Part shown: positions 17,102 through 40,256 of the stretch, piece after piece
Layout of the letters: each line of letters begins with the position of its first letter
Numbering within the stretch: the stretch's first letter is position 1
DNA from: Dysgonomonas sp. UBA5412
Lineage (GTDB): Bacteria > Bacteroidota > Bacteroidia > Bacteroidales > Dysgonomonadaceae
Length of the DNA stretch: 64,000 nt
Assembly (NCBI GenBank): GCA_002409595.1
Contig: DHNQ01000029.1
Location: 400,839 to 464,838, forward strand
Direction of reading: 5' to 3'
Program-made: the position numbers and the translations under genes
The notes under the pieces: model-generated
Database searches by the model: none
Told to the model about the DNA's origin: nothing
What the model saw: the letters and a program-made list of their open reading frames with translations, nothing else

Positions 17102-17133
17102 TAAATTTGCACACTTGAAATACATGTGTGCAA
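17102..17133 (+). promoter_or_regulatory. Promoter -7 element overlapped by palindrome TTGCACAC-N11-GTGTGCAA
   Basis: TAAATTTG at 17102-17109; palindrome arms at 17107-17114 and 17126-17133, 8 nt before the TetR ATG. Confidence 0.6.
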
Positions 17134-17141
17134 TTTAAGAT

Positions 17142-17732
17142 ATGGCCATAAACAAAACTCGAAATATTCTGATTGATGTAGCACGCCAGTTGTTTGCAAA
17201 ACTCGGTGTCGACAACACAACTATGAACGATATAGCTGTAGCCTCACATAAGGGACGACGTACTCTTTACACATATTTCAACAATAAGAACGAGGTATAT
17301 CAGGCAGTGTTGGAAACGGAATTGGATCAGATGTATCACGCTTTACAGTCTGTTGCCAATAAAAATCTTCCGGCAGACGAGAAATTACTTTTATTTTTCT
17401 ATACACGCTTCGATGCTATAAAAAATGTTGTAGCGAGAAACGGTACGTTGAAAGCTGATTTCTTTCGTGATATATGGCGTGTGCAAAATGTACGTAAAGC
17501 CTTCGATCGAAAAGAAATTCAGGTACTTAAAGATATATTAAATAAGGGAGTAGAAGAGGGCACATTCGAGATGCCCGACACTCAGGCTACTGCCGAAATT
17601 CTCCATCATGCACTTAAAGGGCTTGAAGTTCCATACATACGGGGGCAGATACGTGCCGAAAGCCTGCAAACCGAATCGCAAAGAGAGAATATTGCTTACC
17701 TTATCTTTGAAGGTATAAAAAAGAAGAAATAA
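17142..17732 (+). CDS. TetR/AcrR family regulator upstream of fabG
   Basis: 'LIDVARQLFAKLGVDNTTMNDIAVASHKGRRTLYTYF' HTH. Confidence 0.92.
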   Translation: MAINKTRNILIDVARQLFAKLGVDNTTMNDIAVASHKGRRTLYTYFNNKNEVYQAVLETELDQMYHALQSVANKNLPADEKLLLFFYTRFDAIKNVVARNGTLKADFFRDIWRVQNVRKAFDRKEIQVLKDILNKGVEEGTFEMPDTQATAEILHHALKGLEVPYIRGQIRAESLQTESQRENIAYLIFEGIKKKK

Positions 17733-17758
17733 TCTAAATATATTAAATTATATAAATT

Positions 17759-18505
17759 ATGAAATTACTTGAAGGTAAAACAGCTGTCATCACCGGTGCA
17801 GCGCGCGGTATTGGTAAAGCCATTGCCCTAAGATATGCAGCAGAAGGAGCAAATATTGCATTCACAGACCTTGCTATAGACGACAATGCGAAAGCTACTG
17901 AAGCCGAAATTGCAAAATTTGGCGTAAAAGCAAAAGGGTATGCATCTAATGCTGCCAATTTCGAAGAAACACACAAGGTGGTAGACGAAATATTAAAAGA
18001 TTTCGGACGAATCGATATTCTTGTCAACAATGCAGGTATCACTCGTGATGGATTGATGATACGCATGAGTGAGCAACAATGGGATATGGTAATAAATATC
18101 AACCTTAAATCGGCATTCAACTTTATCCACGCCATCACTCCTATTATGTTGAAACAAAAAGGTGGTAGTATTATCAATATGAGTTCTGTTGTAGGGCTTT
18201 CAGGAAATGCAGGACAAACTAACTATTCAGCGTCTAAAGCCGGTATGATCGGATTAGCTAAATCCATCGCTAAAGAAGTTGGATCAAGAGGCATTCGTGC
18301 CAACTGCATCTGTCCGGGATTCATCATCACTGAAATGACCGGTGTGCTTTCTGATGAAGTAAAACAAAAATGGGCAGAACAAATACCTTTGCGTCGCGGA
18401 GGAACACCTGAAGATGTGGCTAATGTAGCAGTATTCTTAGGTTCAGACCTATCTTCTTACGTATCAGGACAAGCCATCCCAGTTTGTGGTGGTATGAATA
18501 TGTAA
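17759..18505 (+). CDS. fabG: 3-oxoacyl-ACP reductase
   Basis: 'TGAARGIG', 'NNAGITRD', 'NYSASK', 'PGFIITEMT'. Confidence 0.93.
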   Translation: MKLLEGKTAVITGAARGIGKAIALRYAAEGANIAFTDLAIDDNAKATEAEIAKFGVKAKGYASNAANFEETHKVVDEILKDFGRIDILVNNAGITRDGLMIRMSEQQWDMVININLKSAFNFIHAITPIMLKQKGGSIINMSSVVGLSGNAGQTNYSASKAGMIGLAKSIAKEVGSRGIRANCICPGFIITEMTGVLSDEVKQKWAEQIPLRRGGTPEDVANVAVFLGSDLSSYVSGQAIPVCGGMNM

Positions 18506-18540
18506 TCTCACATCTTATTTTATAAGATATAACCATAAAA

Positions 18541-18569
18541 AAAGGTTTCGGATATATTCCGAAACCTTT
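18541..18569. terminator. Bidirectional terminator fabG/rlmH
   Basis: AAAGGTTTCGGA / TCCGAAACCTTT stem. Confidence 0.8.
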
Positions 18570-18570
18570 A

Positions 18571-19044
18571 TTATTCGTGATGGTAAGGCTCATTATTTAA
18601 TATTGTCATTGCCCTATATAGTTGCTCTACAAATATCAATCGCACCATCTGATGGGAGAATGTCATACGCGACAAGGTCAGTTTTTCGTTCGCCTTATCA
18701 TAGACGGAAGACGAAAATCCATAGGGGCCTCCTATTACAAACACGAGCCGCTTGCCTACGGTGTGAGTTTTCTTTTCTATATACGAAGCAAATTGAGTTG
18801 AGGTATATTCTTTCCCTTTATCATCTAATAAAACAAGGCAGTCTCCGGCTTGTATCGTTTTCAGAATCAATTCCCCTTCACGATCCTTTTGCTGTTCTGC
18901 TGTCAAATTTTTAGTATTCTTAACATCCGGTATGATCTGTATTTCGAAAGGAATATAGTGCTCCAGCCTTTTCTTATATTCGTTTACAGCATCTATAAAA
19001 TAACCGGCATCCGTTTTGCCTATAGCTAAAAGAACAATCTTCAT
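18571..19044 (-). CDS. rlmH: 23S rRNA (pseudouridine1915-N3)-methyltransferase
   Basis: 'FVIGGPYG', 'TFSHQMVRLIFVEQLYRA', C-terminal 'PYHHE'. Likely start ATG 19044. Confidence 0.96.
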   Translation of the reverse strand: MKIVLLAIGKTDAGYFIDAVNEYKKRLEHYIPFEIQIIPDVKNTKNLTAEQQKDREGELILKTIQAGDCLVLLDDKGKEYTSTQFASYIEKKTHTVGKRLVFVIGGPYGFSSSVYDKANEKLTLSRMTFSHQMVRLIFVEQLYRAMTILNNEPYHHE

Positions 19045-19144
19045 AAAAATATCTTTAAAACGCAAAAATAGTCATTTTTCGCTTTTAGCTGATAAAAAAC
19101 AAACGGACAACCAACAGTCATCCGCTTCATATATTTATTTTTCT

Positions 19145-19984
19145 CTATTTAGTGGCATCTATAACACCTCTGAAATACCCAATAGACTCTGCTATGCCGG
19201 CCAAAGGCGCTTTCATATTGCGTTCGTATTCCAAGCTACAAGCCCCTGAATAACCTACCTTGCGAAGCATTCTTACAAATGCAGGTATATCAATAACCCC
19301 ACGACCTATTTCTCCAGTCTTACCTTCTTTTGTGGCAGCAGAAGTATTTTTCATATGTATGTCAAAAACTCTGTCTTTATATCTTTCCAGATCAAGAATC
19401 GGGTCTTGTCCGTCTCGTGCATCGTGACCTATATCGAGACACATACCTATACGAGGATCAAGGTCTTTTACATTTTCATAGATATCTGTCGCATTCGGAT
19501 ATAATTTAATGTCAGGACCATGCAGATGGATCGCATATTTGAAGTCATATTCTTTCACCTTCTGATCTACATAAGGTAACAATTCGTAGTTGGGAACTCC
19601 GACAATAAGCTTTACCCCTACTCTTTTCGCATATTCAAAAGCCTTATCTATCTCTTCTTTCGTTTTCATATAGATAGGACCCACAGCGTATCCGGTTACA
19701 TTATGTGCAGCCAACTTTGCATGAAAGGCTGCGATTTCATCATCCGTACTATTGAGCGGCAAATGAAAATCTTTGATACAAAGATAATGCACATCCACCT
19801 CTTGCATCATTTTTAGAGTTTCGTCCAGATTGAAGTTTACAAAAGTGTATCCGGCAATAGCTACTTTAAATAATTCATCATTATTTTCCGATGGACGATC
19901 CGGTGTTCCGGCTAAAATATTTCCCGACATAAAAATGGTGTGCGCGAACACAACAAGCAAGATTAGTTTTAAATTCTTCTTCAT
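19145..19984 (-). CDS. Exported sugar-phosphate isomerase/epimerase (xylose isomerase-like TIM barrel)
   Basis: Signal peptide; 'AIHLHGP', 'CLDIGH', 'DIHMKN', 'SLEYE' metal-binding pattern. Confidence 0.8.
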   Translation of the reverse strand: MKKNLKLILLVVFAHTIFMSGNILAGTPDRPSENNDELFKVAIAGYTFVNFNLDETLKMMQEVDVHYLCIKDFHLPLNSTDDEIAAFHAKLAAHNVTGYAVGPIYMKTKEEIDKAFEYAKRVGVKLIVGVPNYELLPYVDQKVKEYDFKYAIHLHGPDIKLYPNATDIYENVKDLDPRIGMCLDIGHDARDGQDPILDLERYKDRVFDIHMKNTSAATKEGKTGEIGRGVIDIPAFVRMLRKVGYSGACSLEYERNMKAPLAGIAESIGYFRGVIDATK

Positions 19985-20226
19985 GGCTTTAGTATTTTAA
20001 GGATTAAGGTTTAATTTGATTAGACTATTATCTATACACAAATGTATAAAATATTCAAGAAAATTAACAAGATGACTTTATTTTATTTTATCAAAATGAA
20101 GTAATATAAAACATCCTATGAATTAATCAAACGTCTTTTATTCAGAAAAATAAAACACAAATTACATATTTCATAAGAAAAACAACTATATTTGCCGCTC
20201 ATTTATTTTTAACTAAAAAAAACCTT

Positions 20227-21063
20227 ATGAAAGCTACAAAACTATTAATTCTATTAACATTTATTTTAACCGGACTAACCTTCTCATCATGTAGTGATGA
20301 TGATGAAAATGAAAAAACTATTAACACTTTTGGTCCCAAAAATGTATTCACAGGAGATCTACCTAAAACAGTAGGGATATCTAGCGTGAAATACAATACA
20401 GAAGGACTAGTTGAGGAGATGTCCAACCTTTATTATAAAATCACATTCGAATATCAGACAAAATTAAAATCAGCAAACGACACAAAAAGCGTATTGATGA
20501 CAGTAAATGATCTAGAGGATCCTGAGAATAGCTATACTGCCGTATTTGAAATAGGGGAAAATGGGTTTGCGAGCAAAGCTTTAGAAACTTATGTTGACAA
20601 AACAACTGACACCTGGGAGTTTAAATATAATAATGACGGACAGCTAAACTATATGAAAAGAAGTGAGGGTGACAACGAGATCACGACGATAACATATACT
20701 GACGGCAATATAACTGGAATAAAGATGGTATCTGACGACAAAAACGAAGGTACTTATTCAGCTTCAATAGCATATACCTCAGAAGTTCATTCCAAAGGAA
20801 TCGAAAATAAAGGCTGCATAATGCTCTTCGATATAACTTTTGGCATTGATATGGATGAAATGGAGATTGCATACTATGCGGGATTGCTTGGACGTGCAAC
20901 AAAAAACCTACCATTAACAATGACTCAAACATACACTTATTCTGATGAACCGTCATCAAGCAACACATATAACTTTGATTGGACATTAAACGCAAAAGGC
21001 TACCCAGTAAAAGTAAATTTCGAGGATGAAGAAGACATGGATTTCATAGAATTCGCTTGGTAA
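20227..21063 (+). CDS. Surface lipoprotein, DUF4595-like beta-rich family
   Basis: Lipobox FSS|C followed by acidic SDDDENE; repeated 'Y...G' strands; 'YYAGLLG...NLP' motif. Confidence 0.65.
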   Translation: MKATKLLILLTFILTGLTFSSCSDDDENEKTINTFGPKNVFTGDLPKTVGISSVKYNTEGLVEEMSNLYYKITFEYQTKLKSANDTKSVLMTVNDLEDPENSYTAVFEIGENGFASKALETYVDKTTDTWEFKYNNDGQLNYMKRSEGDNEITTITYTDGNITGIKMVSDDKNEGTYSASIAYTSEVHSKGIENKGCIMLFDITFGIDMDEMEIAYYAGLLGRATKNLPLTMTQTYTYSDEPSSSNTYNFDWTLNAKGYPVKVNFEDEEDMDFIEFAW

Positions 21064-21083
21064 CAAGAATAACTAAAATATAG

Positions 21084-21117
21084 AAAAAAGTGTATCAAAA
21101 ACTGATACACTTTTTTT
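21084..21117 (+). terminator. Intrinsic terminator
   Basis: AAAAAAGTGTATCA / TGATACACTTTTTT followed by a T-run. Confidence 0.8.
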
Positions 21118-21229
21118 ATTCAAAAAATTATTTGTCTTAAATAAGCTCTTTATATTTTAGAAGTGTAAGAATAAAAATACTTAATTATATATAAATTCAC
21201 TTATATTTGTAATATAAAAAAATAAACTT

Positions 21230-22096
21230 ATGCGAACAATACCTGACTCGGAACTGATTATAAATAGTGACGGAAGTGCATTTCATCTACACATTAAGCC
21301 GGAACAACTCTCGGACAAAATCATTATGATGGGCGATCCTGATAGGGTTAACCTCACAGCCTCTTTTTTCGACAGTATCGAATGCAACATTCAGAGTCGT
21401 GAGTTTCATACTATTACCGGTTTGTATAAAGGAAAACGCATCACAGCCTTATCTCATGGCATCGGACCCGACAATATAGATATTGTTATTACAGAATTGG
21501 ATGCTTTGGCAAACGTAGACTTTGAATCGAGAGAGGTCAAAAAAGAGTTTAAACAATTGACAATGGTGCGCGTAGGCACATCTGGAGGATTACAGCCACA
21601 TTGCCCGATCGGATCGTATGTAGTTGCGGCAAAATCAATAGGTTTTGATGGTGTGTTAAATTATTATGAGGGGCGAAATAATATAACTTTAAACGATTTT
21701 GAAGCTGCATTCAAACAACACGTAAATTGGAATCCTCTACACTGCTCTCCGTATGTGATAAAAGCTGATGAAGAATTAGTTCAACGCGTAGGACATGATA
21801 TGATACAAGGGGTGACTATTTCGGCTATTGGTTTTTACGGGCCTCAGGGCAGATATGTACGCATGCCTTTGGCAAACCCCGACTTAAATAGTAAGATAGA
21901 ATCGTTCGAATATGAAGGGGATACGATAACCAACTATGAAATGGAGAGTGCACCTTTGGCTGGTTTAGGCAGACTGATGGGACACAAGGCTATGACGGTA
22001 TGCACCATAATAGCAAACAGATTGGCTGGAGAATCGAATGCCAACTATAAAGGATCGATCGAAGACCTTATCAAAACCGTATTAGACCGAATTTAA
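21230..22096 (+). CDS. Nucleoside phosphorylase (PNP/UDP family)
   Basis: 'MGDPDRV', 'HGIG', 'RVGTSGGLQ', 'GFYGPQGR', 'NYEMES'. Confidence 0.9.
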   Translation: MRTIPDSELIINSDGSAFHLHIKPEQLSDKIIMMGDPDRVNLTASFFDSIECNIQSREFHTITGLYKGKRITALSHGIGPDNIDIVITELDALANVDFESREVKKEFKQLTMVRVGTSGGLQPHCPIGSYVVAAKSIGFDGVLNYYEGRNNITLNDFEAAFKQHVNWNPLHCSPYVIKADEELVQRVGHDMIQGVTISAIGFYGPQGRYVRMPLANPDLNSKIESFEYEGDTITNYEMESAPLAGLGRLMGHKAMTVCTIIANRLAGESNANYKGSIEDLIKTVLDRI

Positions 22097-22752
22097 TGAA
22101 ACGAAAGAAGGGTAAAATACTAAAAAAAATTAGTTTGATTATAATTATACCTTTAATCACAATCATTCTTGTTATTCTTTTTGCCAATTGGAAGATTCCA
22201 TACGACTCAAAAGATTATATATATAGCAGTACGGATAGTATCCCTGCTCAAAAAGCAGCTTTAGTATTGGGGGCTTCCCGATATATTGGCAATGTACCTA
22301 ATCCATATTTTACATACCGAATACAAGCTGCAGCTGAATTGTACAACGCCGGTAAGGTAAAATCGTTTGTAGTGAGTGGAGACAATCGGACACATGATTA
22401 TAATGAGGCTGAAGATATGCGCAGTGCATTAATAGAAGCCGGAGTTCCCGACAGTATTATCCATTGTGATTATGCAGGGCTTCGCACTTTAGACTCTGTT
22501 GTGAGAATGAACAAAATATTCGGACAGGATTCCTTTATTGTTGTTTCACAAAAGTTTCACAACGAGAGAGCTATATTTATTGCTCGTCATTCGGGACTCG
22601 ACGTATATGGATACAATGCAAAAGATCTCACTCTCAGCCGTTTTTCATCTCGCACCAAAATAAGAGAAGTATTAGCGCGTGTGAAAGTTCTTATTGATTT
22701 GGCAACAAACAAACAACCTCGCCACCTTGGAGAGGAAATAGATATCAACTAA
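22096..22752 (+). CDS. sanA: SanA/YdcF (DUF218) family membrane protein
   Basis: N-terminal TM, 'ALVLGA', 'VSGDN...YNE', 'DYAGLRTLDS', 'SQKFHNERA'. Confidence 0.85.
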   Translation: MKRKKGKILKKISLIIIIPLITIILVILFANWKIPYDSKDYIYSSTDSIPAQKAALVLGASRYIGNVPNPYFTYRIQAAAELYNAGKVKSFVVSGDNRTHDYNEAEDMRSALIEAGVPDSIIHCDYAGLRTLDSVVRMNKIFGQDSFIVVSQKFHNERAIFIARHSGLDVYGYNAKDLTLSRFSSRTKIREVLARVKVLIDLATNKQPRHLGEEIDIN

Positions 22753-22775
22753 CTGTGTAACCATAAAAATAATTT

Positions 22776-23921
22776 ATGAAAAAACTACTATTTACTCTAC
22801 TACTGTGTGTAACATACACCATTAGTTATGCTCAAAATTCGAACGATGAGCTATTGAAAAAATTGGTGGAGAAAAACGTTCTTACTCAAAGTGAGGCTGA
22901 TTCTCTAAGTTCTTCTACTGCACCGAAGAATGAATCTAAATCATTTATTCAGTCTGTAGAAAAGGTCAGAGAAGGATTTAACACTCCTTACATGCAATTT
23001 GGCGGATATGGTATGTTAATGTATAAATATAATGACATGAGTAGCGTCAAACATAATGTAGATGCCAGAGTCTTATTTCTGAATGTGGAAGGAAAAATAT
23101 TTAAAAATTTCAGATATTATGCTTTGATGGAATTTATAAATCCAACTCTTACAGAATACTTTGTAGAGTGGACACCTTCAAGCCGCTTCAACTTGAAAGT
23201 AGGACAGATGAAAACTCCTTTTTCGTTAGAGAATCAACAATCTTTAACGACTCTCGAATCCATTGTGAACAGCAGATCTGTGTCTGCATTAGCTGGTATG
23301 GGTGACGATGTGCTAAAGAAGCAGAATAATAAAAATAATGGAGGACGTGATATGGGTATATTAACATACGGAAGCTTGTTCAGTACCCCAACTCACGATC
23401 TTGTCGAATATGCTATCGGGCTCTATCAAGGAACGGGGCTTATCACAAGCGAGACAAACAACACAAAAGACTTCATAGCCAATATTATGATCCAGCCAAT
23501 CAAAGGATTCCGCATTGGTGGAGGCGGGTATTTTGGTCAAGCCAAATATGGTAATGCCCAAGGATTGGCATTGAATCATGTTCGTAACCGCTGGATAGTA
23601 AGTTCTGATTACAAAAATGATAGGTTATATGCTCGTGCGGAATGGATAAAAGCTAATGATGGAGGAATTGAAAAAGAAGGCATACACGGAACGGCTTTGT
23701 GGTATTTCATTCCTCAGCGGTTAAATGCTTTTGCAAAAGCTGATTATCTAAATCAGAACAAAGATATTAATAGTGAAGTTATAGATTACACTATAGGTGT
23801 TAACTATTACTTTTATAAATCATGTCGTTTTCAATTGAATTATACATATTCAGACTATTCAAACAAATGGAATGCTCCTAACTCAAATACAGTATTAGGA
23901 CAAATGCAGATAGTATTCTAA
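22776..23921 (+). CDS. Outer-membrane porin (phosphate-selective OprO/OprP-like)
   Basis: Signal peptide ending SYA|Q, 'GQMKTPFSLEN', amphipathic strands, C-terminal Phe ('QMQIVF'). Confidence 0.75.
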   Translation: MKKLLFTLLLCVTYTISYAQNSNDELLKKLVEKNVLTQSEADSLSSSTAPKNESKSFIQSVEKVREGFNTPYMQFGGYGMLMYKYNDMSSVKHNVDARVLFLNVEGKIFKNFRYYALMEFINPTLTEYFVEWTPSSRFNLKVGQMKTPFSLENQQSLTTLESIVNSRSVSALAGMGDDVLKKQNNKNNGGRDMGILTYGSLFSTPTHDLVEYAIGLYQGTGLITSETNNTKDFIANIMIQPIKGFRIGGGGYFGQAKYGNAQGLALNHVRNRWIVSSDYKNDRLYARAEWIKANDGGIEKEGIHGTALWYFIPQRLNAFAKADYLNQNKDINSEVIDYTIGVNYYFYKSCRFQLNYTYSDYSNKWNAPNSNTVLGQMQIVF

Positions 23922-24104
23922 AAGTTTATTCATTTTATAGGAAGAGCCAACTAAAAAGCAATAAAGAAACTCCATCCGTAATAGATTGACAATATCCCCA
24001 AAAGCAATCTATTACGGATGAAATATTTTACGAATCCTCATCTCTATTTCTCTATATTAAGAAATAAATGTAACTTTGAAATAGTTATACCAATACATTT
24101 CATT

Positions 24105-25496: not shown

Positions 25497-25669
25497 CTTG
25501 GTAAAATAACAACAAATTAAAAGTAGATAAATATACTGTATTTCAATTAATTATATATACAATTTAGATTTTGCAAAAACTTTATTTTCTTAATTCACCG
25601 TAAATATTTGCTGCAATATTACAACGAATGATTATATTTGCCGTAAACAAATGTAAAAACAGTACAGCT

Positions 25670-26794: not shown

Positions 26795-26934
26795 AATTTC
26801 TGTATAATTATATTGCATTTAAGTTAAGATGTCTTATCATTAAGATTTTTAGCATCTAAAAGCTCAATTTCATTTTTCAGATAGGCTAAGTCTATTTTCA
26901 TTGGATGATATTTATCTAGATGCATACTAAATAA

Positions 26935-27798: not shown

Positions 27799-27807
27799 AG
27801 AAAAAAT

Positions 27808-29160: not shown

Positions 29161-29161
29161 C

Positions 29162-30816: not shown

Positions 30817-30835
30817 AACAGACGAGGAAATACTT

Positions 30836-33688
30836 ATGAAAAGCGAAAGATTTGAATCCCGACACATTGGTATCAATGAACACGATGAGAGAGTGATGCT
30901 GAACAAAATAGGTGCAAAATCTCTTGATGAACTTATTGAACAAACTATACCTCAGGATATTCGTTTAGAAAGAGGATTGCATTTACCCGAAGCACTCAGC
31001 GAGCATGAGTATGCAGAAGAGATGGCTTTGATGGCTTCAAAAAATCGAATAAATGCATGCTATATCGGTATGGGGTGGTATGACACTGTTGTGCCTGCAC
31101 CAATCTTCCGCAATGTATTCGAGAATCCTGTTTGGTACACCTCCTACACTCCATATCAGGCTGAAATATCTCAAGGACGTCTCGAAGCATTGATGAATTT
31201 TCAGACTATGGTTAGCCAACTCACAGCCCTACCTTTATCCAACTGTTCATTGTTGGATGAGGCTACTGCCGGAGCAGAAGCCGCAACCATGATGCATGCT
31301 TTACGCACTCGCGAACAAATAAAAAATAATGCAAATAAACTTTTTGTTGACAAAAATATTTTTCCACAAACGTTAGCCGTCATCAATACACGCAGTCAGC
31401 CGCAGGGAATAGAAGTTGTGGTAGGCGATTTTCAGCAAACAGAATTAGACAATGGGTTCTTTGGAGCAATCATACAATATCCAAACTCAGAAGGGCATGT
31501 GGTCGATTATTCCGCCTTTACACAAAAAGCTCATGCAGCAGAATGTAAAGTCGCTGTTGCCACAGACCTTATGGCTCTGACTCTCTTGGTTCCTCCCGGC
31601 GAATGGGGAGCAGATATTGCTTTCGGCAGCAGCCAGAGATTTGGAGTTCCAATGTTTTATGGTGGACCTTCTGCCGGATTTTTTGCCACTAAAGAAGAAT
31701 ATAAGCGAAATGTACCGGGACGTATAATAGGCATATCAAAAGATACTTATGGTAAATCAGCATATCGCATGGCTTTGCAGACTCGTGAGCAACATATAAA
31801 GAGAGAAAAGGCGACTTCTAATATCTGTACTGCACAGGCTTTGCTTGCCACTATGGCGGGCTTCTATGCTGTATATCATGGACCTAAAGGATTAAGAAGA
31901 ATTGCAAAACGAATTCATTCCGTGACAGCACTTATTGCAGACGAATTGCGTGAACTCGGTTACACAATTGTTCACAATCAATATTTTGACACTCTAAAAA
32001 TCATTTTACCGGTAAATATAGATCAGGATTCAGTCCGTATGTATTCCGAAATGCGAGATATAAACCTGCGTTATTTCGAAAGTGGAGAATTAGGAATAAG
32101 CATAGACGAGACTATTACCGAATATAAGGCTCACGAACTATTGGCTTTATTCTCTTTAGCAGTAGGACGCACGGAAGTGTTTATGATAGACGATCTGCCT
32201 GAAAAAATGATATTGAAAGATGACTTCTTACGAAAAAGCCCTTTCTTACAGCACGACGTATTCAATTCATATCATACCGAAACTGAACTAATGCGCTACA
32301 TCAAACGGTTAGACAGAAAGGATATTTCGCTTGCACATTCTATGATTTCGTTAGGATCTTGTACAATGAAGCTAAATGCAGCCTCAGAATTGTTGCCACT
32401 ATCTTTGGGTGGATTCCAAAACATACATCCTTTTGCACCTAAATCTCAGACACAAGGATATAATGAACTCATTGAAGAATTGGGAGAATACTTGAAAGAA
32501 ATAACTGGCTTTGCAGGAGTTAGCTTCCAGCCAAACTCCGGAGCGGCCGGTGAATATGCAGGATTGATGACCATCCGCAAATATCAGGAAAGCATAGGAG
32601 AAGGGCATCGCAATATAATATTAATTCCGGCATCAGCACACGGAACTAATCCAGCGTCAGCAATTCAAGCCGGATATGAAACAGTAACTATCGACTGCGA
32701 CTCTCATGGAAATGTAGTTCTGGAAGATTTAAGGACAAAAGCAGAATTACACAAAGATAAGCTAGCAGGCTGTATGATCACATATCCGTCTACTCATGGA
32801 ATCTTTGAAAAGAAAATAAAGGAAATGTGTCAGGTTGTCCACGACAATGGAGGGCAAGTTTATATGGACGGAGCCAATATGAATGCTCAAGTAGGCTTAA
32901 CCAATCCGGGCTTTATTGGAGCAGATGTATGCCATCTGAATTTGCACAAGACATTTGCAATACCTCACGGAGGAGGAGGACCGGGAGAAGGCCCTATCTG
33001 TGTTGCAGAACACCTTGTCCCATTCCTACCACATCACCCCGAAGAAGACGGCAGTTGTGTAAACACAGTTGCATCTGCACCTTATGGCAGCGCAGGCATA
33101 CTTCCTATCACTTACGGATATATACGCATGATGGGTCCTGAGGGATTGACTCGTGCTACTAAAATAGCAATTTTGAGCGCTAACTATTTAGTAGAATGCC
33201 TAAAAGACACATACGGCATTGTATATACCGGAATATCGGGCAGAGTAGGACACGAACTAATATTGGAATGTCGCAAGATAAAGGAAACATCAGGCATCAC
33301 AGAATCGGATATTGCAAAGCGCTTGATGGATTATGGATACCACGCCCCCACACTATCGTTTCCTGTTCATGGAACTTTGATGATAGAACCAACTGAGAGC
33401 GAAAGTCTTGCAGAACTCAATAGATTTGTAGATACAATGAATCAGATCTGGGAAGAAATTAAAGAAGTAGAAAACGGAACGTATACTAAGGAAGATAATG
33501 TATTGGTAAATGCTCCACATCCCGAATACGAAGTTTGTGGAGATGAATGGAAACATGCCTATCCTCGTTCCAAGGCTGCTTATCCTTTAGAATTTGTAAA
33601 AGACAATAAATTTTGGATCAATGTGGCACGCGTAGACAATGCCTATGGTGATCGAAACTTAGTTACTTGTTTATGCGATATGGGATAA
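30836..33688 (+). CDS. gcvP: Glycine dehydrogenase (decarboxylating), P protein
   Basis: 'YTSYTPYQAEISQGRLE', 'REQHIKREKATSNICT', 'LGSCTMKLN', 'HLNLHKTF' (PLP Lys). Confidence 0.98.
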   Translation: MKSERFESRHIGINEHDERVMLNKIGAKSLDELIEQTIPQDIRLERGLHLPEALSEHEYAEEMALMASKNRINACYIGMGWYDTVVPAPIFRNVFENPVWYTSYTPYQAEISQGRLEALMNFQTMVSQLTALPLSNCSLLDEATAGAEAATMMHALRTREQIKNNANKLFVDKNIFPQTLAVINTRSQPQGIEVVVGDFQQTELDNGFFGAIIQYPNSEGHVVDYSAFTQKAHAAECKVAVATDLMALTLLVPPGEWGADIAFGSSQRFGVPMFYGGPSAGFFATKEEYKRNVPGRIIGISKDTYGKSAYRMALQTREQHIKREKATSNICTAQALLATMAGFYAVYHGPKGLRRIAKRIHSVTALIADELRELGYTIVHNQYFDTLKIILPVNIDQDSVRMYSEMRDINLRYFESGELGISIDETITEYKAHELLALFSLAVGRTEVFMIDDLPEKMILKDDFLRKSPFLQHDVFNSYHTETELMRYIKRLDRKDISLAHSMISLGSCTMKLNAASELLPLSLGGFQNIHPFAPKSQTQGYNELIEELGEYLKEITGFAGVSFQPNSGAAGEYAGLMTIRKYQESIGEGHRNIILIPASAHGTNPASAIQAGYETVTIDCDSHGNVVLEDLRTKAELHKDKLAGCMITYPSTHGIFEKKIKEMCQVVHDNGGQVYMDGANMNAQVGLTNPGFIGADVCHLNLHKTFAIPHGGGGPGEGPICVAEHLVPFLPHHPEEDGSCVNTVASAPYGSAGILPITYGYIRMMGPEGLTRATKIAILSANYLVECLKDTYGIVYTGISGRVGHELILECRKIKETSGITESDIAKRLMDYGYHAPTLSFPVHGTLMIEPTESESLAELNRFVDTMNQIWEEIKEVENGTYTKEDNVLVNAPHPEYEVCGDEWKHAYPRSKAAYPLEFVKDNKFWINVARVDNAYGDRNLVTCLCDMG

Positions 33689-33770
33689 AAAACCTAAAAT
33701 ACATTATATTTGTAAACATAATTGAAGTAAAAACCGTTTATTTATAATAATAAACACAATATATAGAACT

Positions 33771-34091
33771 ATGAGAATGAAGATTTTTTTAATAACACTA
33801 GTATTAACCCTTGGCTTAGGAACAACTTTAGTTGCCCAAAACCAGAAAGCTCCATTGAAGAATGATAAGGAAACTGTTTTGTTCGACGTATCAATGACTT
33901 GTGAAAACTGTCAGAAACGAATCGAGAAAAATATTGCTTTCGAAAAAGGGGTTACAGATATGAAAGTCGATCTTGCAAATAAGACTGTATTAGTTGAGTT
34001 CAAAAAGACTCAGACATCGGTTGACAAACTACAAGCAGCCATTGCAAAGTTAGGATATGATGTAAAAATACATAAAGACGGAAAAGAATGA
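33771..34091 (+). CDS. Exported heavy-metal-associated (HMA) domain protein
   Basis: Signal peptide ending LVA|Q; 'MTCENC' CxxC; 'LGY' end motif. Confidence 0.85.
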   Translation: MRMKIFLITLVLTLGLGTTLVAQNQKAPLKNDKETVLFDVSMTCENCQKRIEKNIAFEKGVTDMKVDLANKTVLVEFKKTQTSVDKLQAAIAKLGYDVKIHKDGKE

Positions 34092-34543
34092 AAAAGTTAT
34101 TTATTATGATTGCTGCTGCAGCATTATTATATAGTTGTGGTGGTAACACTCAAAAAAAAGAAGAATCTCAGGCCTCAGTCGAAGATTTTTCAGCGATTGC
34201 CGAATCTGTTTCGGATGGACATAATGCACAGAATTCTTTAGATTATGAAGGCATCTATACCGGAACACTACCTACGGCAAGTGGTGAGGGAATGTTGGTT
34301 ACTATTACATTAAGCGATAGTACATATACCAGAAACATCGAATATATAGGTAAAAAAGGTAGCAAAACTGAAGAAAAAGGTAAATATACATGGGGCAAAG
34401 ATGGCAGTGTAATCACACTCCAGAATGTAGATAAAGAGTCTCCAAGCCAATATTTTGTTGGAGAAAACACCTTAACTCAGTTAGATATGGATGGTAATAA
34501 AATAACCGGAGATATGGCAGAATTATATATTTTGAAAAAGTAA
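34088..34543 (+). CDS. NlpE N-terminal-domain (copper-resistance) lipoprotein
   Basis: Lipobox LYS|C; 'SLDYEGIYTGTLPTASGEG', 'QLDMDGNKI'. Confidence 0.8.
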   Translation: MKKLFIMIAAAALLYSCGGNTQKKEESQASVEDFSAIAESVSDGHNAQNSLDYEGIYTGTLPTASGEGMLVTITLSDSTYTRNIEYIGKKGSKTEEKGKYTWGKDGSVITLQNVDKESPSQYFVGENTLTQLDMDGNKITGDMAELYILKK

Positions 34544-34562
34544 AAAATTCTAACGATTATAA

Positions 34563-34598
34563 ACAAAGGTCGGATTTATTAAAAAATCCGACCTTTGT
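34563..34598 (+). terminator. Intrinsic terminator after gcvP-HMA-NlpE
   Basis: ACAAAGGTCGGATTT / AAATCCGACCTTTGT, 15-bp stem. Confidence 0.8.
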
Positions 34599-34798
34599 CT
34601 TTTATTAATTGAACAGTATATGATTTTTTCTTCTTTTATTCTGATAAAAGAAGAAATCATAGCACTTATAATTAACAGAACAAAAAGCATCCTCAATCAT
34701 ATCATTTTTTTACAAAAAAACGCTATTTAATTTTCACATTAATACAAATTAAATACCTTTGCATGTAATTTAATAGTAAAAACGTCCAAAATAGAAAA

Positions 34799-35836
34799 AT
34801 GAGCTATTTAATAAAACCTCTAAAATACCATGCCCTACTCGGCTTACAACAAACAGAATTGGGGATAAAACAGATAAAAGATTTTTTTCAACAAAATCTA
34901 TCTTCAGAATTACGTTTAAGAAGAGTTACAGCTCCCCTATTCGTATTAAAAGGAATGGGTATAAACGACGACCTGAATGGCGTAGAGCGTGCAGTAAATT
35001 TCCCAATAAAAGATATGGATGACGAATGTGCCGAAATTGTACATTCTCTCGCAAAATGGAAGAGACTCACCCTAGCCGATTATGGCATAAATGAAGGCTA
35101 CGGTATATATACCGACATGAATGCCATAAGGGCTGACGAGGAGTTGGGCAACCTCCACTCCCTATATGTAGATCAGTGGGACTGGGAAATGGTGATGTCG
35201 CCGGAAAATAGAAATTTAGACTTCTTGAAAGAAGTTGTAAATCGAATATATGCTGCATTGGTGCGCACAGAATATCTTGTCTACGAATTATTCCCTGCTA
35301 TTACTCCGATCTTGCCTTCGGAGATAAAATTTATCCACTCAGAAGAGTTACTACAAAGATATCCCGATCTGACAACTAAGGAACGAGAGAACGAGATAGC
35401 CAAAGAATACGGTGCAGTATTTATCATCGGTATCGGAGGCGCATTAAGCAACGGCAAACCACATGACGGACGCGCCCCTGATTATGACGACTGGACCACC
35501 CGCTCCGAAAATGGCTATCATGGCCTCAATGGAGACCTTATTGTGTGGAATCCCGTATTAGGGCAAGGAATGGAATTGTCGTCAATGGGTATCCGTGTAA
35601 ATAAAGAAACTTTGTTGGAGCAGCTAAAAGTATCGGGACAAGAAGACCGCAAGGATTTATATTTCCATAAGCGTTTGCTAAACGAAGAATTACCTCAGTC
35701 TATTGGTGGTGGAATTGGTCAATCTCGCCTTTGTATGTTCTATTTGAGAAAGGGACATATCGGAGAGATTCAGGCTGGCATATGGCCGGAGAAAATGCGC
35801 AAAGAAGCAGAAGCTTTTGGCATGCCACTTATTTAA
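34799..35836 (+). CDS. asnA: Aspartate-ammonia ligase
   Basis: 'EIVHSLAKWKR', 'YVDQWDWE', 'HDGRAPDYDDW', 'IGGGIGQSR'. Confidence 0.96.
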   Translation: MSYLIKPLKYHALLGLQQTELGIKQIKDFFQQNLSSELRLRRVTAPLFVLKGMGINDDLNGVERAVNFPIKDMDDECAEIVHSLAKWKRLTLADYGINEGYGIYTDMNAIRADEELGNLHSLYVDQWDWEMVMSPENRNLDFLKEVVNRIYAALVRTEYLVYELFPAITPILPSEIKFIHSEELLQRYPDLTTKERENEIAKEYGAVFIIGIGGALSNGKPHDGRAPDYDDWTTRSENGYHGLNGDLIVWNPVLGQGMELSSMGIRVNKETLLEQLKVSGQEDRKDLYFHKRLLNEELPQSIGGGIGQSRLCMFYLRKGHIGEIQAGIWPEKMRKEAEAFGMPLI

Positions 35837-35988
35837 ATCGTATTTTATAAAAAGATTTAAATAACTTTATTCTACCTTTCGATTGGAATAAAGAAGAGAT
35901 GTTAAATCAATATTTTTTTATAACTTTATATTTAAGGATGTTTTATCAGAAACATCCTTTGTTTTTATTAATTCAAGCTAAAAAAAAC

Positions 35989-37659
35989 ATGGAGAATAAA
36001 GTTAGAATTCATTGTACTAATACAGATACTTACAAAGACTTTCCGACAGGAACAAGCCTTACTGAAATATTAAAAGTATTTTCGCCACAGACAAAATATC
36101 GCGTTGTAAACGCCAAAGTAAATAACAAAACAGAGCCACTATATTATCAGCCTTATCATAATAAGACAGTTACATTTATTGATCTATCCGAAGCTTCCGG
36201 TATGCGCACATACGTACGTTCGTTATGTTTCTTATTAGCAAAGGCTGTTTCGGAAGTATTTCCTGAAGGGCAATTGTATATCGAACATCCTATTTCTCTC
36301 GGATACTTCTGTCGTATAATCAATGTCTCTAATGTCATAGACGAGAAAGCCATTGTTGCGATCAAAGAAAAAATGCAGGAATATGTAAATGCAGATATTC
36401 CTTTTGAAGGAGTAGAAGAGGAAACTGATCAGGTGGTAAAGATGTTTAGAGATAAAGGATTTGAAGATAAAGCTCTATTACTGGAAACAACCGGCGAGAT
36501 ATATTCTAAATATTATAGATTAGGAGATTCTGTCGATTACTTTTATAGCTGCCTTGTACCTTCCACCGGCTATATTGATATTTATGATCTGGAACTATAT
36601 CACGACGGGTTATTACTACGAGTTCCCAATCGAAGCAATCCCGTAGAATTGGAGCCTCGCATAGAACAACCAATGATGTATAATGTATATAAAGAGCATC
36701 TTAAGTTTCTAAACATCATAGGTATGGATAATGTTGGAGATATGAACAAAGCCAATAAGGAAGGTCTGATCACTAATATTATAAAAGTAGCCGAAGCATA
36801 CCAAGAGAAAACAATTGCTAATATAGCAGAGCAGATAGCAGCACGTTCCGAAGATGGAGTTCGAGTTGTTCTAATCTCCGGACCATCATCGTCCGGAAAA
36901 ACGACTTTCAGAATGAGACTGGAAGTACAATTGATGGTGAATCTGATGAAACCTGTAGGTTTATCTCTTGATAATTATTTTGTAGACAGACATCTTACCC
37001 CACTGGATGAAAATGGAGGATACGATTTCGAATCTTTATATGCTTTAGATATTCCCAAGTTTAATGAGGATCTTGAAAACCTATTAAGCGGAAAAGAAAT
37101 AGAACTACCAACATTCAACTTCACAACAGGGAAACGAGAGTATAAAGGAGATAAGTTAAAGCTAGAGGAGCATACTATTCTTGTTATAGAAGGTATCCAC
37201 GGATTAAATCCTGATCTAACTGCCGGGATTCCCGATAACCAGAAATATGGAATATATGTATCGGCACTAACCACAATATCTTTAGACAATCATAACTGGA
37301 TACCGACTACAGACAATCGCCTTCTACGTCGTTTAATTCGCGACCATAGATATAGAAACTACTCTGCAATAGATACTCTTTCGCGTTGGCAAAGTGTTCG
37401 CCGCGGCGAAGATAAATGGATTTTCCCATATCAGGAAAATGCTGATGTGATGTTTAACTCGGCTATGATATACGAATTTGCCGCTTTGCGCCGCTATGCA
37501 GAACCTATTCTGCTTCAAGTACCGAACAACGCTCCTGAATATGCAGAAGCCCACCGTCTTCTTAAATTCTTAAAGTATTTTAATTACATAAATGACAGAG
37601 AGTTGCCACCAACATCACTACTGCGAGAATTTGTAGGCGGAAGCAGTTTCAAATATTAA
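35989..37659 (+). CDS. udk: Uridine/nucleoside kinase with ThrRS-like N-terminal domains
   Basis: TGS-like N-terminus; 'ISGPSSSGKTT', 'EGIHGLN', 'RLLRRLIRD'. Likely start ATG 35989. Confidence 0.85.
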   Translation: MENKVRIHCTNTDTYKDFPTGTSLTEILKVFSPQTKYRVVNAKVNNKTEPLYYQPYHNKTVTFIDLSEASGMRTYVRSLCFLLAKAVSEVFPEGQLYIEHPISLGYFCRIINVSNVIDEKAIVAIKEKMQEYVNADIPFEGVEEETDQVVKMFRDKGFEDKALLLETTGEIYSKYYRLGDSVDYFYSCLVPSTGYIDIYDLELYHDGLLLRVPNRSNPVELEPRIEQPMMYNVYKEHLKFLNIIGMDNVGDMNKANKEGLITNIIKVAEAYQEKTIANIAEQIAARSEDGVRVVLISGPSSSGKTTFRMRLEVQLMVNLMKPVGLSLDNYFVDRHLTPLDENGGYDFESLYALDIPKFNEDLENLLSGKEIELPTFNFTTGKREYKGDKLKLEEHTILVIEGIHGLNPDLTAGIPDNQKYGIYVSALTTISLDNHNWIPTTDNRLLRRLIRDHRYRNYSAIDTLSRWQSVRRGEDKWIFPYQENADVMFNSAMIYEFAALRRYAEPILLQVPNNAPEYAEAHRLLKFLKYFNYINDRELPPTSLLREFVGGSSFKY

Positions 37660-37685
37660 AAAATAATGAGATAATTATTTCAACA

Positions 37686-37716
37686 AGTAGAGATTACTAA
37701 GGTAGTCTCTATTTTT
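37686..37716. terminator. Bidirectional terminator udk/rnc
   Basis: TAGAGATTAC-TAAG-GTAGTCTCTA hairpin followed by a T-run. Confidence 0.65.
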
Positions 37717-37748
37717 ATTATATAATATAAGGTTGTGTAAAGAGTGTT

Positions 37749-38591
37749 TTATTTTACTTCAGCATTAGTATCTTCTTCTTCTTTCTGTAAACTCAGATAA
37801 GTTTCGCTTTGCAATTGCTGTTGGGCTTCATGCAATCTCAAAATATGATCCTTAAAACCTAAGTTACGTTGCAATTTATTAAATGCTTCTTTTGCAGCCT
37901 TTTGTTGCGATTCCTTCTTCGAGTAACCGGTTCCCACACCGGCTTGTTCGCCTAGTATGACGACTGCCGTTTTGAATATAGGAGTATTATTCTCATCAAC
38001 AAAGCTATCAATAAGATCAAAGCTTACCGATATTTTTTGCTTTTGGCTCCATTCTATCAAACGAGACTTATAATTTGCTTCTAACTCTGCAACAGTCTCT
38101 ATATTCAAATGTTGCTGTATAAGCTTCTCAAAAACAAATCTTTTAGCAGCCCGATATCCCTGATCCAGATATATAGCTCCAATCAATGCCTCAAGAGCAT
38201 TTCCATACATATGCGTATTGGGAGTTGTGTTTCGTGTCGAAGATTTTATCAGCTTATCAATTCCAATCTCTAAGGCTAATTTATTTAAGGTCTCACGCTG
38301 GACTATTTTCGAACGCATGTTGGTAAGGAATCCCTCTTTTTTATATTCGAACTCCTTAAATACAATATCAGCAACTATGGCATCAAGAATAGCATCACCC
38401 AAAAACTCTAACCGTTCATTATTTATCCATCTACCATCTTTCAATTTTATTGAAGAAGATTTGTGTAGTAGAGCCTGATCGTATAAAGTTATGTTATAAG
38501 GGCAAAATCCTAATATTTTGCTAAAAGATACGTAAGGCTCCTTCCCTCTTTTAGGAAGAAGCCTTATACCTCGATATATTTTTCTAAACAC
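37749..38591 (-). CDS. rnc: Ribonuclease III
   Basis: 'NNERLEFLGDAIL', 'NALEALIGAIYLD', dsRBD 'GYSKKESQQKAA'. Confidence 0.97.
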   Translation of the reverse strand: MFRKIYRGIRLLPKRGKEPYVSFSKILGFCPYNITLYDQALLHKSSSIKLKDGRWINNERLEFLGDAILDAIVADIVFKEFEYKKEGFLTNMRSKIVQRETLNKLALEIGIDKLIKSSTRNTTPNTHMYGNALEALIGAIYLDQGYRAAKRFVFEKLIQQHLNIETVAELEANYKSRLIEWSQKQKISVSFDLIDSFVDENNTPIFKTAVVILGEQAGVGTGYSKKESQQKAAKEAFNKLQRNLGFKDHILRLHEAQQQLQSETYLSLQKEEEDTNAEVK

Positions 38592-38599
38592 GTTGTGTT

Positions 38600-39862
38600 T
38601 TATTTCTTAAACTTTTTTACTATAACACAAGCATTATGTCCTCCAAACCCAAAGGTATTGGATAAAGCTACATTAACTTCGCGTTCTTGTGCTTTATTAA
38701 AGGTCAAATTTAATTTGTAATCTATATCAGGATCTTCATCTCCTTCCGTAAAGTTGATTGTCGGAGGCACTATATTATTCTGGATAGACAGCACACAAAA
38801 CATTGTTTCTAATGCTCCGGCAGCACCTAACAAGTGACCGGTCATAGATTTTGTGGAGCTGATATTCAGATTATATGCGTGCTCGCCGAATACCTCTTTT
38901 ATAGCCTTTATTTCCGAAGGGTCTCCAACAGGTGTAGATGTTCCATGCACATTGATATAATCCATATCGCTAGGATTAAGATTAGCATCTTGCAAGGCAT
39001 TTCTCATCACCAATTTTGCGCCTAAACCATCAGGATGTGACGCTGTTAGATGATAAGCATCTGCCGACATACCACCGCCTGCAACTTCTGCGTAAATTTT
39101 AGCACCACGAGCTAAAGCATGTTCCAGTTCTTCAAAGATAAGACATGCCGATCCCTCTCCGATAACAAATCCATCGCGACTCGCACTAAATGGACGTGAT
39201 GCTGTTTGAGGAGAATCGTTGCGTGTAGAAAGAGCTGTCATTGCATTGAAGCCACCAACACCCGATGCTGTAATAGCAGCCTCAGCACCACCTACTATCA
39301 TAACATCTGCCTTGCCCAATCGGATATGATCGAACGCAGATATAGCACTATGTGTAGAAGAAGCGCAAGCCGATACAGTACCATAATTTGGTCCTCTAAG
39401 GCCATGACGGATAGAAATCAAGCCTGATGCAATATCCGAAATCATCTTAGGGATAAAGAACGGATTGAACTTCGGTCCCATATCTTCGTGTGTAAAATAA
39501 TATCCAACTTCTTCTTCAAAAGTTTTGATACCACCTATACCGGCAGACATGATAACTCCGATTCTATCGCAATTTTCTGTAGCAAAATCTAACTTTGAGT
39601 CAGCTATTGCTTCTTCCGAAGACCCGATAGCCAACAATGTATATCTGTCACATTTGCGAATTTCTTTTCTATCTAAATATTTAGACGGATCGAAATCTTT
39701 TACTTCGCAAGCGAACTGTGTTTTGAATTTTGACGCATCAAAATGAGTAATAGGTCCAGCCCCACTCATTCCCTTGAGGGCATTGCCCCATGTAGTCTCT
39801 ACATTGTTACCAAGAGGTGATATTGAACCTAGACCTGTTACTACTACTCTTTTTAATTCCAT
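38600..39862 (-). CDS. fabF: 3-oxoacyl-ACP synthase II
   Basis: 'SACASS', 'HGTSTPVGD', 'TGHLLGAAG', 'NTFGFGGHN'. Confidence 0.97.
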   Translation of the reverse strand: MELKRVVVTGLGSISPLGNNVETTWGNALKGMSGAGPITHFDASKFKTQFACEVKDFDPSKYLDRKEIRKCDRYTLLAIGSSEEAIADSKLDFATENCDRIGVIMSAGIGGIKTFEEEVGYYFTHEDMGPKFNPFFIPKMISDIASGLISIRHGLRGPNYGTVSACASSTHSAISAFDHIRLGKADVMIVGGAEAAITASGVGGFNAMTALSTRNDSPQTASRPFSASRDGFVIGEGSACLIFEELEHALARGAKIYAEVAGGGMSADAYHLTASHPDGLGAKLVMRNALQDANLNPSDMDYINVHGTSTPVGDPSEIKAIKEVFGEHAYNLNISSTKSMTGHLLGAAGALETMFCVLSIQNNIVPPTINFTEGDEDPDIDYKLNLTFNKAQEREVNVALSNTFGFGGHNACVIVKKFKK

Positions 39863-39883
39863 ACTTAAAATTTGGAAAAAAGA

Positions 39884-40120
39884 TTATTTTGCATTTGCTT
39901 CAATGTAAGAAACTGCGTCTCCTACTGTAGCGATTTTTTCAGTTTGATCATCTGGAATAGAAATACCAAATTCCTTTTCGAATTCCATGATTAATTCTAC
40001 TGTATCAAGTGAATCAGCTCCTAAGTCGTTAGTGAAGCTTGCTGTATCTGTTACTTCAGATTCTTCAACACCTAACTTATCAACAATAATTGCTTTCACT
40101 TTTGATGCTACTTCTGACAT
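39884..40120 (-). CDS. acpP: Acyl carrier protein
   Basis: '[12 protein letters not shown]'. Confidence 0.98.
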
Positions 40121-40229
40121 AATTTTTAGTTTTGATTAATAATAATTTTTTTATTTCTAATTTTGTCGGTGCAAAGTAACAGTTTTTTATATATATGAAA
40201 CAAATATTTTGTTGATAAAATAGTTAAAA

Positions 40230-40256
40230 CTGCACATTATTTTTATTTGTGTGCAG
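40230..40256. promoter_or_regulatory. Palindrome CTGCACAT-N11-GTGTGCAG in the acpP/purN divergent spacer
   Basis: Arms at 40230-40237 and 40249-40256; same core and 11-nt spacer as the 17107-17133 palindrome. Confidence 0.55.

Follow-up and report, generated by a model that had tools for sequence, protein, structure and literature searches.

A TetR-family protein, encoded by the first gene of a tetR-fabG operon in Dysgonomonas sp. UBA5412, is in our judgement quite likely to be the transcription factor of a fatty acid regulon in part of the Bacteroidales, with six operators in this genome. The stretch analysed, hereafter the window, is 64,000 nt long and corresponds to C1:400839-464838 of a 31-contig, 3.13-Mb assembly; within it, a widely spaced palindrome with the core TGCACA-N13-TGTGCA stands before tetR-fabG (operator 1) and again between purN and acpP-fabF-rnc (operator 2). 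An earlier reading made from the letters alone, the sequence-only reading, had proposed that one shared operator at tetR-fabG and acpP-fabF marks a fatty acid regulon, and conservation, the nature of the targets and co-occurrence with TetR all support this. What emerges is a probable order-restricted TetR-type fatty acid regulator with an unusual wide-spaced operator and a mixed regulon, so that the earlier interpretation is both supported and extended.

The palindrome and its excess over chance

On re-reading, the coordinates and sequences of both palindromes agreed exactly with those first described, and the scores of Pfam and NCBIfam profiles bear out the identities given to the neighbours, namely TetR, fabG, acpP, fabF and purN. 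Both sites were also said to have 8-bp arms around an 11-nt spacer; the spacer holds for both, but the arms of operator 2 are complementary at only 7 of 8 positions. Operator 1 overlaps the -7 box TAAATTTG of the tetR-fabG promoter and leaves 8 nt between its end and the tetR ATG, and operator 2 begins 25-26 nt from the TTTG element in the acpP sense and ends 19 nt before the purN ATG. The -7 promoter consensus of Bacteroidota, as established for Bacteroides, is TAnnTTTG, and promoter positions in this work were placed by consensus boxes and conservation alone.

The core, to which all mismatch counts below refer, occurs twice in the window where 0.07 occurrences are expected, and none of 100 shuffled sequences reached two. 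Across the whole 3.13-Mb genome, 3 matches are exact, 3 have one mismatch, 83 have two and 992 have three. The two hexamers occur 492 and 535 times, from which 0.084 pairs are expected at any single spacing; the observed pairs number 3 at N13 and 0-1 at each other spacing within 0-40, and the everted arrangement peaks at no spacing genome-wide. As a further control, the pattern read backwards was found 0 times in 19 same-genus genomes, the window's own included. Moreover, when a class-balanced position weight matrix was run on the genome, six sites alone scored more than 14 bits, with scores from 18.5 to 36.3. The observation is therefore confirmed as real and far above chance expectation.

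A proposed regulon of six operons

The six sites that are exact or differ at a single position are all found 5' of lipid or acyl-CoA genes: tetR-fabG, acpP-fabF-rnc, fabI, a gene for a FadD-like acyl ligase, an operon of mce, a carboxyltransferase and a biotin carboxyl carrier protein (BCCP), and a gene for an OadA/PycB-like biotin enzyme. In fact the regulon is bigger than the sequence-only reading had proposed, by fabI, the FadD-like gene, the mce set and the OadA-like gene.

The third exact site precedes the mce operon, whose four genes encode methylmalonyl-CoA epimerase (TIGR03081, above cut-off), a 516-aa carboxyltransferase (best match TIGR01117 mmdA; Pfam Carboxyl_trans), a 58-aa open reading frame (ORF) and a 149-aa biotin carrier, with a terminator at the end. 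As runs of N interrupt the carboxyltransferase, the small ORF and the BCCP at C1:162.7-164.2 kb, the operon was read in a relative (G002, 283-2997). The membrane beta subunit of a Na+-pumping methylmalonyl-CoA decarboxylase is not in the mce operon; this operon (C1:161098-164100) and the OadA/PycB-like gene (C3:50994-52772) together resemble the soluble 12S/1.3S/5S transcarboxylase set. Divergent from mce there is a 91-aa ORF (C1:160485-160760, minus strand) that is kept in most Dysgonomonas genomes and belongs to no Pfam or NCBIfam family.

Among the one-mismatch targets, the FabI-like enoyl reductase, a short-chain dehydrogenase/reductase, has FabI equivalogs as its top NCBIfam matches, all of them under cut-off. 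The genome possesses both a FabK ortholog (C24:319505-320569) and this FabI-like reductase (C6:180925-181740), and of these two genes it is fabI alone that has the operator in Dysgonomonas, while fabK has it in four other families. The OadA/PycB-like protein has a PYC_OADA domain and a C-terminal biotinyl domain. Its leader of about 95 nt, below a -7 box TAAATTTG, contains an inverted repeat (e.g. gcata...tatgc) some 20-95 nt 5' of the ATG, which is present in most genomes of the genus with a varying stem sequence and may be a leader structure.

Conservation in the genus and the order

A search for the exact motif in 30 relatives gave 2-3 sites per genome for 17 members of the genus and a single site for a genome that is 51% complete. 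According to tblastn, the exact sites of the genus always lie at tetR-fabG, at purN<>acpP-fabF-rnc and at mce-carboxyltransferase, with one exception: in one Dysgonomonas species (G014:C1:103702-103726), the third exact site is found 233 nt 5' of the gene for phosphatidylserine decarboxylase, not at mce. Footprints of the site in the genus cover 42/43 tetR loci and 17/18 genomes for acpP, and the mce site is exact in 12 genomes; searches that started from the gene gave 16/18 genomes for fabI, 18/18 for the fadD-like gene and 17/18 for the oadA-like gene, the window's own genome being counted. Outside the genus, another family has the fabI site, and an exact copy of the fadD-like site also occurs in another family. 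Whichever the target, the arms stay the same, the spacer varies, and the site keeps a constant distance from the ATG; the median distance is 11 nt (tetR), 109 nt (acpP), 96 nt (mce), 65 nt (fabI), 6 nt (fadD-like) or 214 nt (oadA-like).

Outside Dysgonomonas, the Parabacteroides genomes were picked by way of tetR, and this set, like the searches for fabI and the fadD-like and oadA-like genes, is gene-first and independent of the motif. In 12/12 of them an exact site lies 111-113 nt 5' of acpP, and the acpP site is present in at least nine families besides Dysgonomonas and Parabacteroides. The second site of the window is hence well kept in relatives, as the sequence-only reading required. Before tetR, 80 loci were compared: Dysgonomonas has the exact site, and Parabacteroides and Tannerellaceae have the form CGCACA/TGCGCA-N13-TGTGCA. 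Many other families show this form too. The palindrome lies 5-26 nt before the tetR ATG, on the -7 box, in the 42 Dysgonomonas-type loci, and the same holds for most other families; in orthologous tetR loci TAnnTTTG likewise overlaps the left arm. Altogether, nearly every family has the operator in front of tetR, even where the protein identity falls to 34%.

Families other than that of Dysgonomonas also carry the motif before fabK (the four families mentioned), before a FadL/Toluene_X porin and related outer membrane proteins, and before accC-pccB, methylmalonyl-CoA mutase and a FadD-like gene. In one case (G189:C17:16725-16770), two overlapping exact operators, 21 nt apart and sharing one arm, stand 73 nt 5' of fabK. 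The content of the regulon is consistently acyl-chain synthesis, uptake and activation, together with a recurrent methylmalonyl/propionyl-CoA component.

The co-occurrence of motif and regulator was examined in an even sample of 201 Bacteroidales genomes, TetR being counted as present at E <= 1e-30 (33 genomes). The exact motif is present in 28/33 genomes with TetR vs 21/168 genomes without it (Fisher p = 3.5e-16), and the exact sites number 60 in the former (1.8 per genome) vs 28 in the latter (0.17 per genome, which is the chance level). Outside Bacteroidales, about 290 other genomes of the phylum were sampled, and this TetR was found in none of them at E <= 1e-25. Moreover, the 250 nt upstream of acpP in 21 TetR-less genomes contain no site, the best match having 3-6 mismatches, and most of these genomes keep the acpP core promoter (TTTG, about 20 nt, TtcTTTGCA). 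A motif shared by several fatty acid genes, conserved among relatives and co-occurring with its regulator is what characterises a fatty acid regulon, and all three features were found here.

At operator 2, the sequence-only reading had TetR acting at acpP-fabF, at purN or at both. The gene order acpP-fabF-rnc is constant in all loci examined; the first two products carry the Pfam PP-binding domain of acyl carrier protein (ACP) and the ketoacyl-synt N and C domains of FabF, and rnc encodes RNase III. In 39 loci, which represent over 10 families, an exact site is found 103-114 nt 5' of acpP, and the blocks of the acpP promoter are kept in an intergenic alignment of Dysgonomonas, Parabacteroides and a further relative, G019. 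From the purN ATG the site is 17-20 nt away in Dysgonomonas and Parabacteroides; in G019, however, the purN ATG lies 133 nt further off, yet the distance from the site to the acpP promoter is unchanged, and in four families no purN adjoins the site. As the site holds its distance to the acpP promoter with purN shifted or absent, acpP-fabF-rnc would be the conserved target of the regulator; purN, given the G019 spacing and the four purN-free families, is probably not. In the window (40158-40179) two -7-like boxes stand back to back, TACTTTGC in the acpP sense (40172-40179, minus strand) and TAATTTTG in the purN sense (40158-40165, plus strand), and their Parabacteroides counterpart reads TTTGCAcTGCAAATTTA. 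Should the purN-sense box be a genuine promoter, operator 2 would fall within the 5' untranslated region of purN, and with these boxes back to back, purN in Dysgonomonas and Parabacteroides may be subject to a local roadblock.

The regulator and its proposed mode of action

The N-terminal helix-turn-helix (HTH) of the protein scores 46.3 bits with Pfam TetR_N (PF00440) over residues 10-56, against a cut-off of 24, and its C-terminal part matches TetR_C_27 with 26.0 bits, just under the cut-off of 26.1. Most positions of the HTH are invariant in 27 orthologs, including N25-A32 and G38-F46. Against NCBIfam the protein has 13 hits and passes none of the equivalog cut-offs; the nearest solved structures are 3f0c, QacR, YfiR and Bacillus FadR. 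The second gene of the operon is a clear FabG (TIGR01830 equivalog, 329.5 bits vs cut-off 297.75) and the sole close FabG of the genome; it is separated from tetR by 26 nt that are free of a terminator. The linkage is common across the order, since 27/30 loci have tetR-fabG or tetR-KAS III-fabG (KAS III, 3-ketoacyl-ACP synthase III), the latter being the Parabacteroides form.

The operator consensus is TTGC(A>T,G)CA-N11-TG(T>A)GCAA, with half-sites 19 bp apart centre to centre and central positions of 0.0-0.5 bit each. We infer that this operator is bound by the TetR encoded in the window. A single TetR dimer is unable to span a half-site spacing of 19 bp, and this spacing, the information-free centre and the existence of relatives that bind as two dimers together suggest that two TetR dimers probably occupy each operator.

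The position of the operator relative to the promoter differs among the targets. At the fadD-like gene the -7 box TATTTTTG lies over the left arm, as it does at tetR, and at fabI the -7 box TATTTTTG runs across both spacer and right arm. For acpP and mce, 50-52 nt separate the operator from the conserved -7 box downstream of it, and for the oadA-like gene the separation is about 110 nt. Where the operator covers the -7 box or transcription start, occupancy should block RNA polymerase, so that at tetR-fabG, fabI and the FadD-like gene bound TetR would occlude the promoter and repress, its own gene included. At acpP-fabF-rnc, mce-carboxyltransferase-BCCP and the OadA-like gene it would modulate transcription from upstream, where either sign is conceivable: repression at a distance, for example by covering an upstream A-rich element (the acpP spacer is A-rich in all families), or activation. 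Our preferred reading is repression at all six operators. The proposal that TetR represses itself and fabG agrees with the autoregulatory geometry of an operator on the -7 box, and repression appears well founded only where the box is overlapped.

The effector would most likely be a long-chain acyl thioester, either acyl-CoA or acyl-ACP, as suggested by analogy and by the regulon content (the FadD-like ligase here and FadL in other families), and the acyl pool would then feed back on both synthesis and uptake. If it acted as a co-repressor, as in FabR and DesT, a coherent feedback on the two supply routes could result. The mce and carboxyltransferase targets also make a FapR-like logic a serious alternative, with malonyl- or methylmalonyl-CoA as the inducer.

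Weighing the alternatives

The left arm at tetR and at the fadD-like gene shares the TTTG of the -7 box, and TAnnTTTG is frequent in the window (113 copies), from which one may suppose that the palindromes are due to chance, to promoter composition (TTTGCA after the -7 box) or to RNA/DNA hairpins. We regard this as hardly credible: the excess of pairs is confined to spacing 13, and both arms are kept at the acpP, mce and oadA-like sites, which are distant from any -7 box. A composition artefact is ruled out by this spacing-specific excess, by the co-occurrence with TetR and by the site-free acpP promoters of TetR-less genomes. As for hairpins, the acpP and mce sites lie 5' of the predicted transcription starts, and the variants TGAGCA (fadD-like), TGCTCA (oadA-like) and TGTGCG (fabI) recur in 16-18 genomes each with no compensation in the partner arm, by which an RNA element is ruled out; such uncompensated variants rather indicate two protein half-sites that are read independently, with a tolerant fourth base, TGC(A>T,G)CA. 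It is very unlikely, too, that a different, unlinked transcription factor binds the palindrome and that tetR is merely one of its targets. The half-site spacing of 19 bp, atypical for a single TetR dimer, would speak for such a factor; the motif nevertheless tracks this TetR gene over the 201 genomes and sits on the tetR promoter itself in nearly every family, the HTH is conserved as much as the half-site, and the full-length relatives QacR and Bacillus FadR use long operators bound by two dimers.

An alternative on the sign of regulation is a dual mode, with the logic seen in E. coli FadR or mycobacterial FasR: TetR would repress the overlapped promoters, activate from the upstream sites and be released by an acyl thioester. 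The offset from the -7 box that acpP and mce share, and the distance to the acpP ATG that is fixed in more than 10 families, are typical of activator sites, and TetR-family activators or dual regulators such as FasR and the LuxR/HapR type are established. However, TetR-less genomes without the site keep the acpP promoter, which implies that activation is not required, and it would be odd for one regulator to switch acpP-fabF on but fabG and fabI, which serve the same pathway, off; we hold this dual mode to be unlikely. A broader version, to which we give an equally low probability, makes TetR a two-mode master regulator that would govern membrane-lipid homeostasis in part of the Bacteroidales and couple fatty acid synthesis to a soluble transcarboxylase-like (methyl)malonyl-CoA/propionyl-CoA module: it would repress at tetR-fabG, fabI or fabK, fadD and fadL, and activate from a fixed upstream position at acpP-fabF, mce-carboxyltransferase-BCCP, the OadA-like gene and accC. 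If true, this regulatory and metabolic link would be one undescribed in any phylum.

Several points weigh against the fatty acid repressor that we prefer. Three of its operators lie off the promoter, and uniform repression is thus not implied by the geometry. Most TetR ligands release the protein from DNA, and acyl-CoA as such a releasing ligand would become an inducer of synthesis genes, which is not obviously sensible. A simple model of fatty acid synthesis leaves the mce, carboxyltransferase and OadA-like targets, with their propionate or transcarboxylase-type chemistry, unaccounted for. Besides, the enrichment near fab genes expected by the sequence-only reading is seen, all six sites being at lipid or acyl-CoA genes, but the upstream regions of fabH, fabD, lpxC-fabZ and the pccB-like/accC (acetyl-CoA carboxylase) operon have no site in this genome, and hence the whole pathway is not under control. 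Nor do those of fabK, the FadL-like outer membrane protein, the KAS III paralog, mutA and psd; the best matches in these site-free regions, with 3-5 mismatches, equal the background of random 400-nt windows. The Dysgonomonas positive sets are partly derived from the motif itself. Finally, the AlphaFold2 model of TetR, built on the 27-sequence alignment, is all-helical with 9 helices, but its mean pLDDT (predicted local distance difference test) is 67 and the HTH is poorly modelled.

Features of the two loci

The features of the window and the four further operator sites of the genome are collected in Table 1. Within the 3' end of tetR (window 17702-17709), 50 nt before the fabG ATG, the sequence TATCTTTG fits TAnnTTTG; it may act as an internal promoter, from which the essential fabG would have a basal expression independent of the operator. 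In Parabacteroides gordonii, a 224-aa ORF that resembles an RluA-type pseudouridine synthase follows fabG after 1 nt. Several assemblies labelled 'Prevotella sp.' encode a TetR 92-96% identical to that of Dysgonomonas; these are probably mislabelled bins or records.

Table 1. Positions of the operators, promoter elements and genes (window coordinates unless a contig is given)
Feature	Position	Strand	Remark
-7 box of tetR-fabG promoter	17102..17109	+	TAAATTTG; overlaps left operator arm
Operator 1	17107..17133	.	TTGCACAC-ttgaaatacat-GTGTGCAA; core TGCACA-N13-TGTGCA at 17108-17132; precedes tetR-fabG
tetR	17142..17732	+	196-aa TetR-family regulator, presumed operator-binding protein
fabG	17759..18505	+	3-oxoacyl-ACP reductase; second gene of tetR operon
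Bidirectional terminator hairpin	18541..18569	.	Ends tetR-fabG operon and convergent rlmH
rnc	37749..38591	-	Operon downstream of operator 2 (37749..40120)
fabF	38600..39862	-	Same operon
acpP	39884..40120	-	Same operon
acpP core promoter	40172..40204	-	-33 TTTG (40201-40204), -7-like TACTTTGC (40172-40179)
Operator 2	40230..40256	.	CTGCACAT-tatttttattt-GTGTGCAG; core at 40231-40255; 109 nt 5' of acpP ATG
purN	40276..40842	+	Divergent neighbour; Pfam Formyl_trans_N
Third exact site	C1:160979		Outside window; 96 nt 5' of four-gene mce operon
One-mismatch site	C6:180834		TGCACA-N13-TGTGCG; 66 nt before FabI-like enoyl reductase
One-mismatch site	C31:45299		TGCACA-N13-TGAGCA (gene sense); 6 nt before 555-aa AMP-binding FadD-like ligase
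One-mismatch site	C3:52984		TGCTCA-N13-TGTGCA (gene sense); 211 nt before 593-aa OadA/PycB-like enzyme

Significance and comparison with known systems

A full-text literature search turned up no characterised transcription factor of fatty acid synthesis in Bacteroidota, just as the sequence-only reading had known of no equivalent there, and the main Bacteroides regulon reconstruction mentions neither TetR nor fab genes. To our knowledge none has been characterised in this phylum; FapR, FabT, FabR, DesT, FadR and FasR all come from other phyla. The present protein is thereby the first testable candidate for the control of membrane-lipid synthesis in Bacteroidales. The candidate is named and its operator precisely defined; its regulon would comprise six operons in Dysgonomonas and would have equivalents in many other Bacteroidales, among them Parabacteroides, a medically interesting genus of the gut. 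Two puzzles follow from it, namely that type II fatty acid synthesis (FAS II) would be controlled in part only, at fabG, acpP-fabF and one enoyl reductase, and that the methylmalonyl-CoA epimerase/carboxyltransferase/BCCP set and the OadA-like gene would be co-regulated with lipid genes. Moreover, FAS II enzymes are antibiotic targets, and the response of gut Bacteroidales to exogenous fatty acids bears on the usefulness of their inhibitors.

Among the known regulators, FapR of Bacillus resembles the system proposed here in heading a fabG operon (fapR-plsX-fabD-fabG), in being autoregulated and in controlling several dispersed FAS II operons, fabI and fabF included. There is no homology, however: FapR joins a DeoR-type HTH to a hot-dog domain while our protein has only TetR_N and TetR_C_27, and the effector of FapR is known to be malonyl-CoA and its regulon is without uptake, mce and carboxyltransferase genes. 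FabR of E. coli and DesT of Pseudomonas are, like the present protein in our preferred reading, TetR-family repressors acting on fab genes, in their case those of unsaturated fatty acid synthesis, and the modulation of their DNA binding by acyl-CoA or acyl-ACP, sometimes as co-repressor, is a precedent for the feedback proposed above. Unlike it, they control only fabA/fabB or desCB through short contiguous palindromes of 18 bp for one dimer, and they belong to Proteobacteria only, whereas this TetR was found only in Bacteroidales among the phylum genomes sampled; neither a FabR nor a DesT model is among its 13 NCBIfam hits. E. coli FadR (GntR family) and mycobacterial FasR (TetR family) are acyl-CoA-responsive and activate synthesis genes from upstream sites, and since E. 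coli FadR also represses fadL and fadD, its mix of targets recalls the FadD-like gene here and FadL in other families. FadR is nevertheless not a TetR protein, activation is a candidate mode in our case, and the match to FasR (NF053731, 29.6 bits vs a cut-off of 330) is limited to the HTH region.

The nearest relatives in sequence are found elsewhere. Among full-length profile matches in the PDB, QacR of Staphylococcus aureus (operator IR1) ranks with the best (E about 1e-8) and offers the best structural precedent for an operator of 25-27 bp, as two of its dimers are cited as binding a 28-bp operator cooperatively (cited in PMC5397183); it differs in being a multidrug-efflux regulator with a single operator whose centre is also sequence-specific. 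Bacillus FadR (YsiA) has the TetR fold, acts on fatty acid genes, is autoregulated, and shows a weak full-length similarity (NF053878, E = 1.6e-8; PDB 3whb, 1vi0, 5gp9, 8sv6); a dimer of dimers occupies its operator, and long-chain acyl-CoA releases the protein (PMC5397183). The two are not orthologs, as the 34.6 bits obtained with NF053878 are far from the equivalog cut-off of 200. FadR controls beta-oxidation genes through a contiguous 21-bp pseudo-palindrome, in contrast to FAS II, uptake and activation genes and a carboxyltransferase set, with arms of 6-7 bp and 11-13 free bases between them, in the present case. Judged from these sequence comparisons, the TetR of Dysgonomonas would work like a lipid regulator of the FapR or FabR type while standing outside all of those families.

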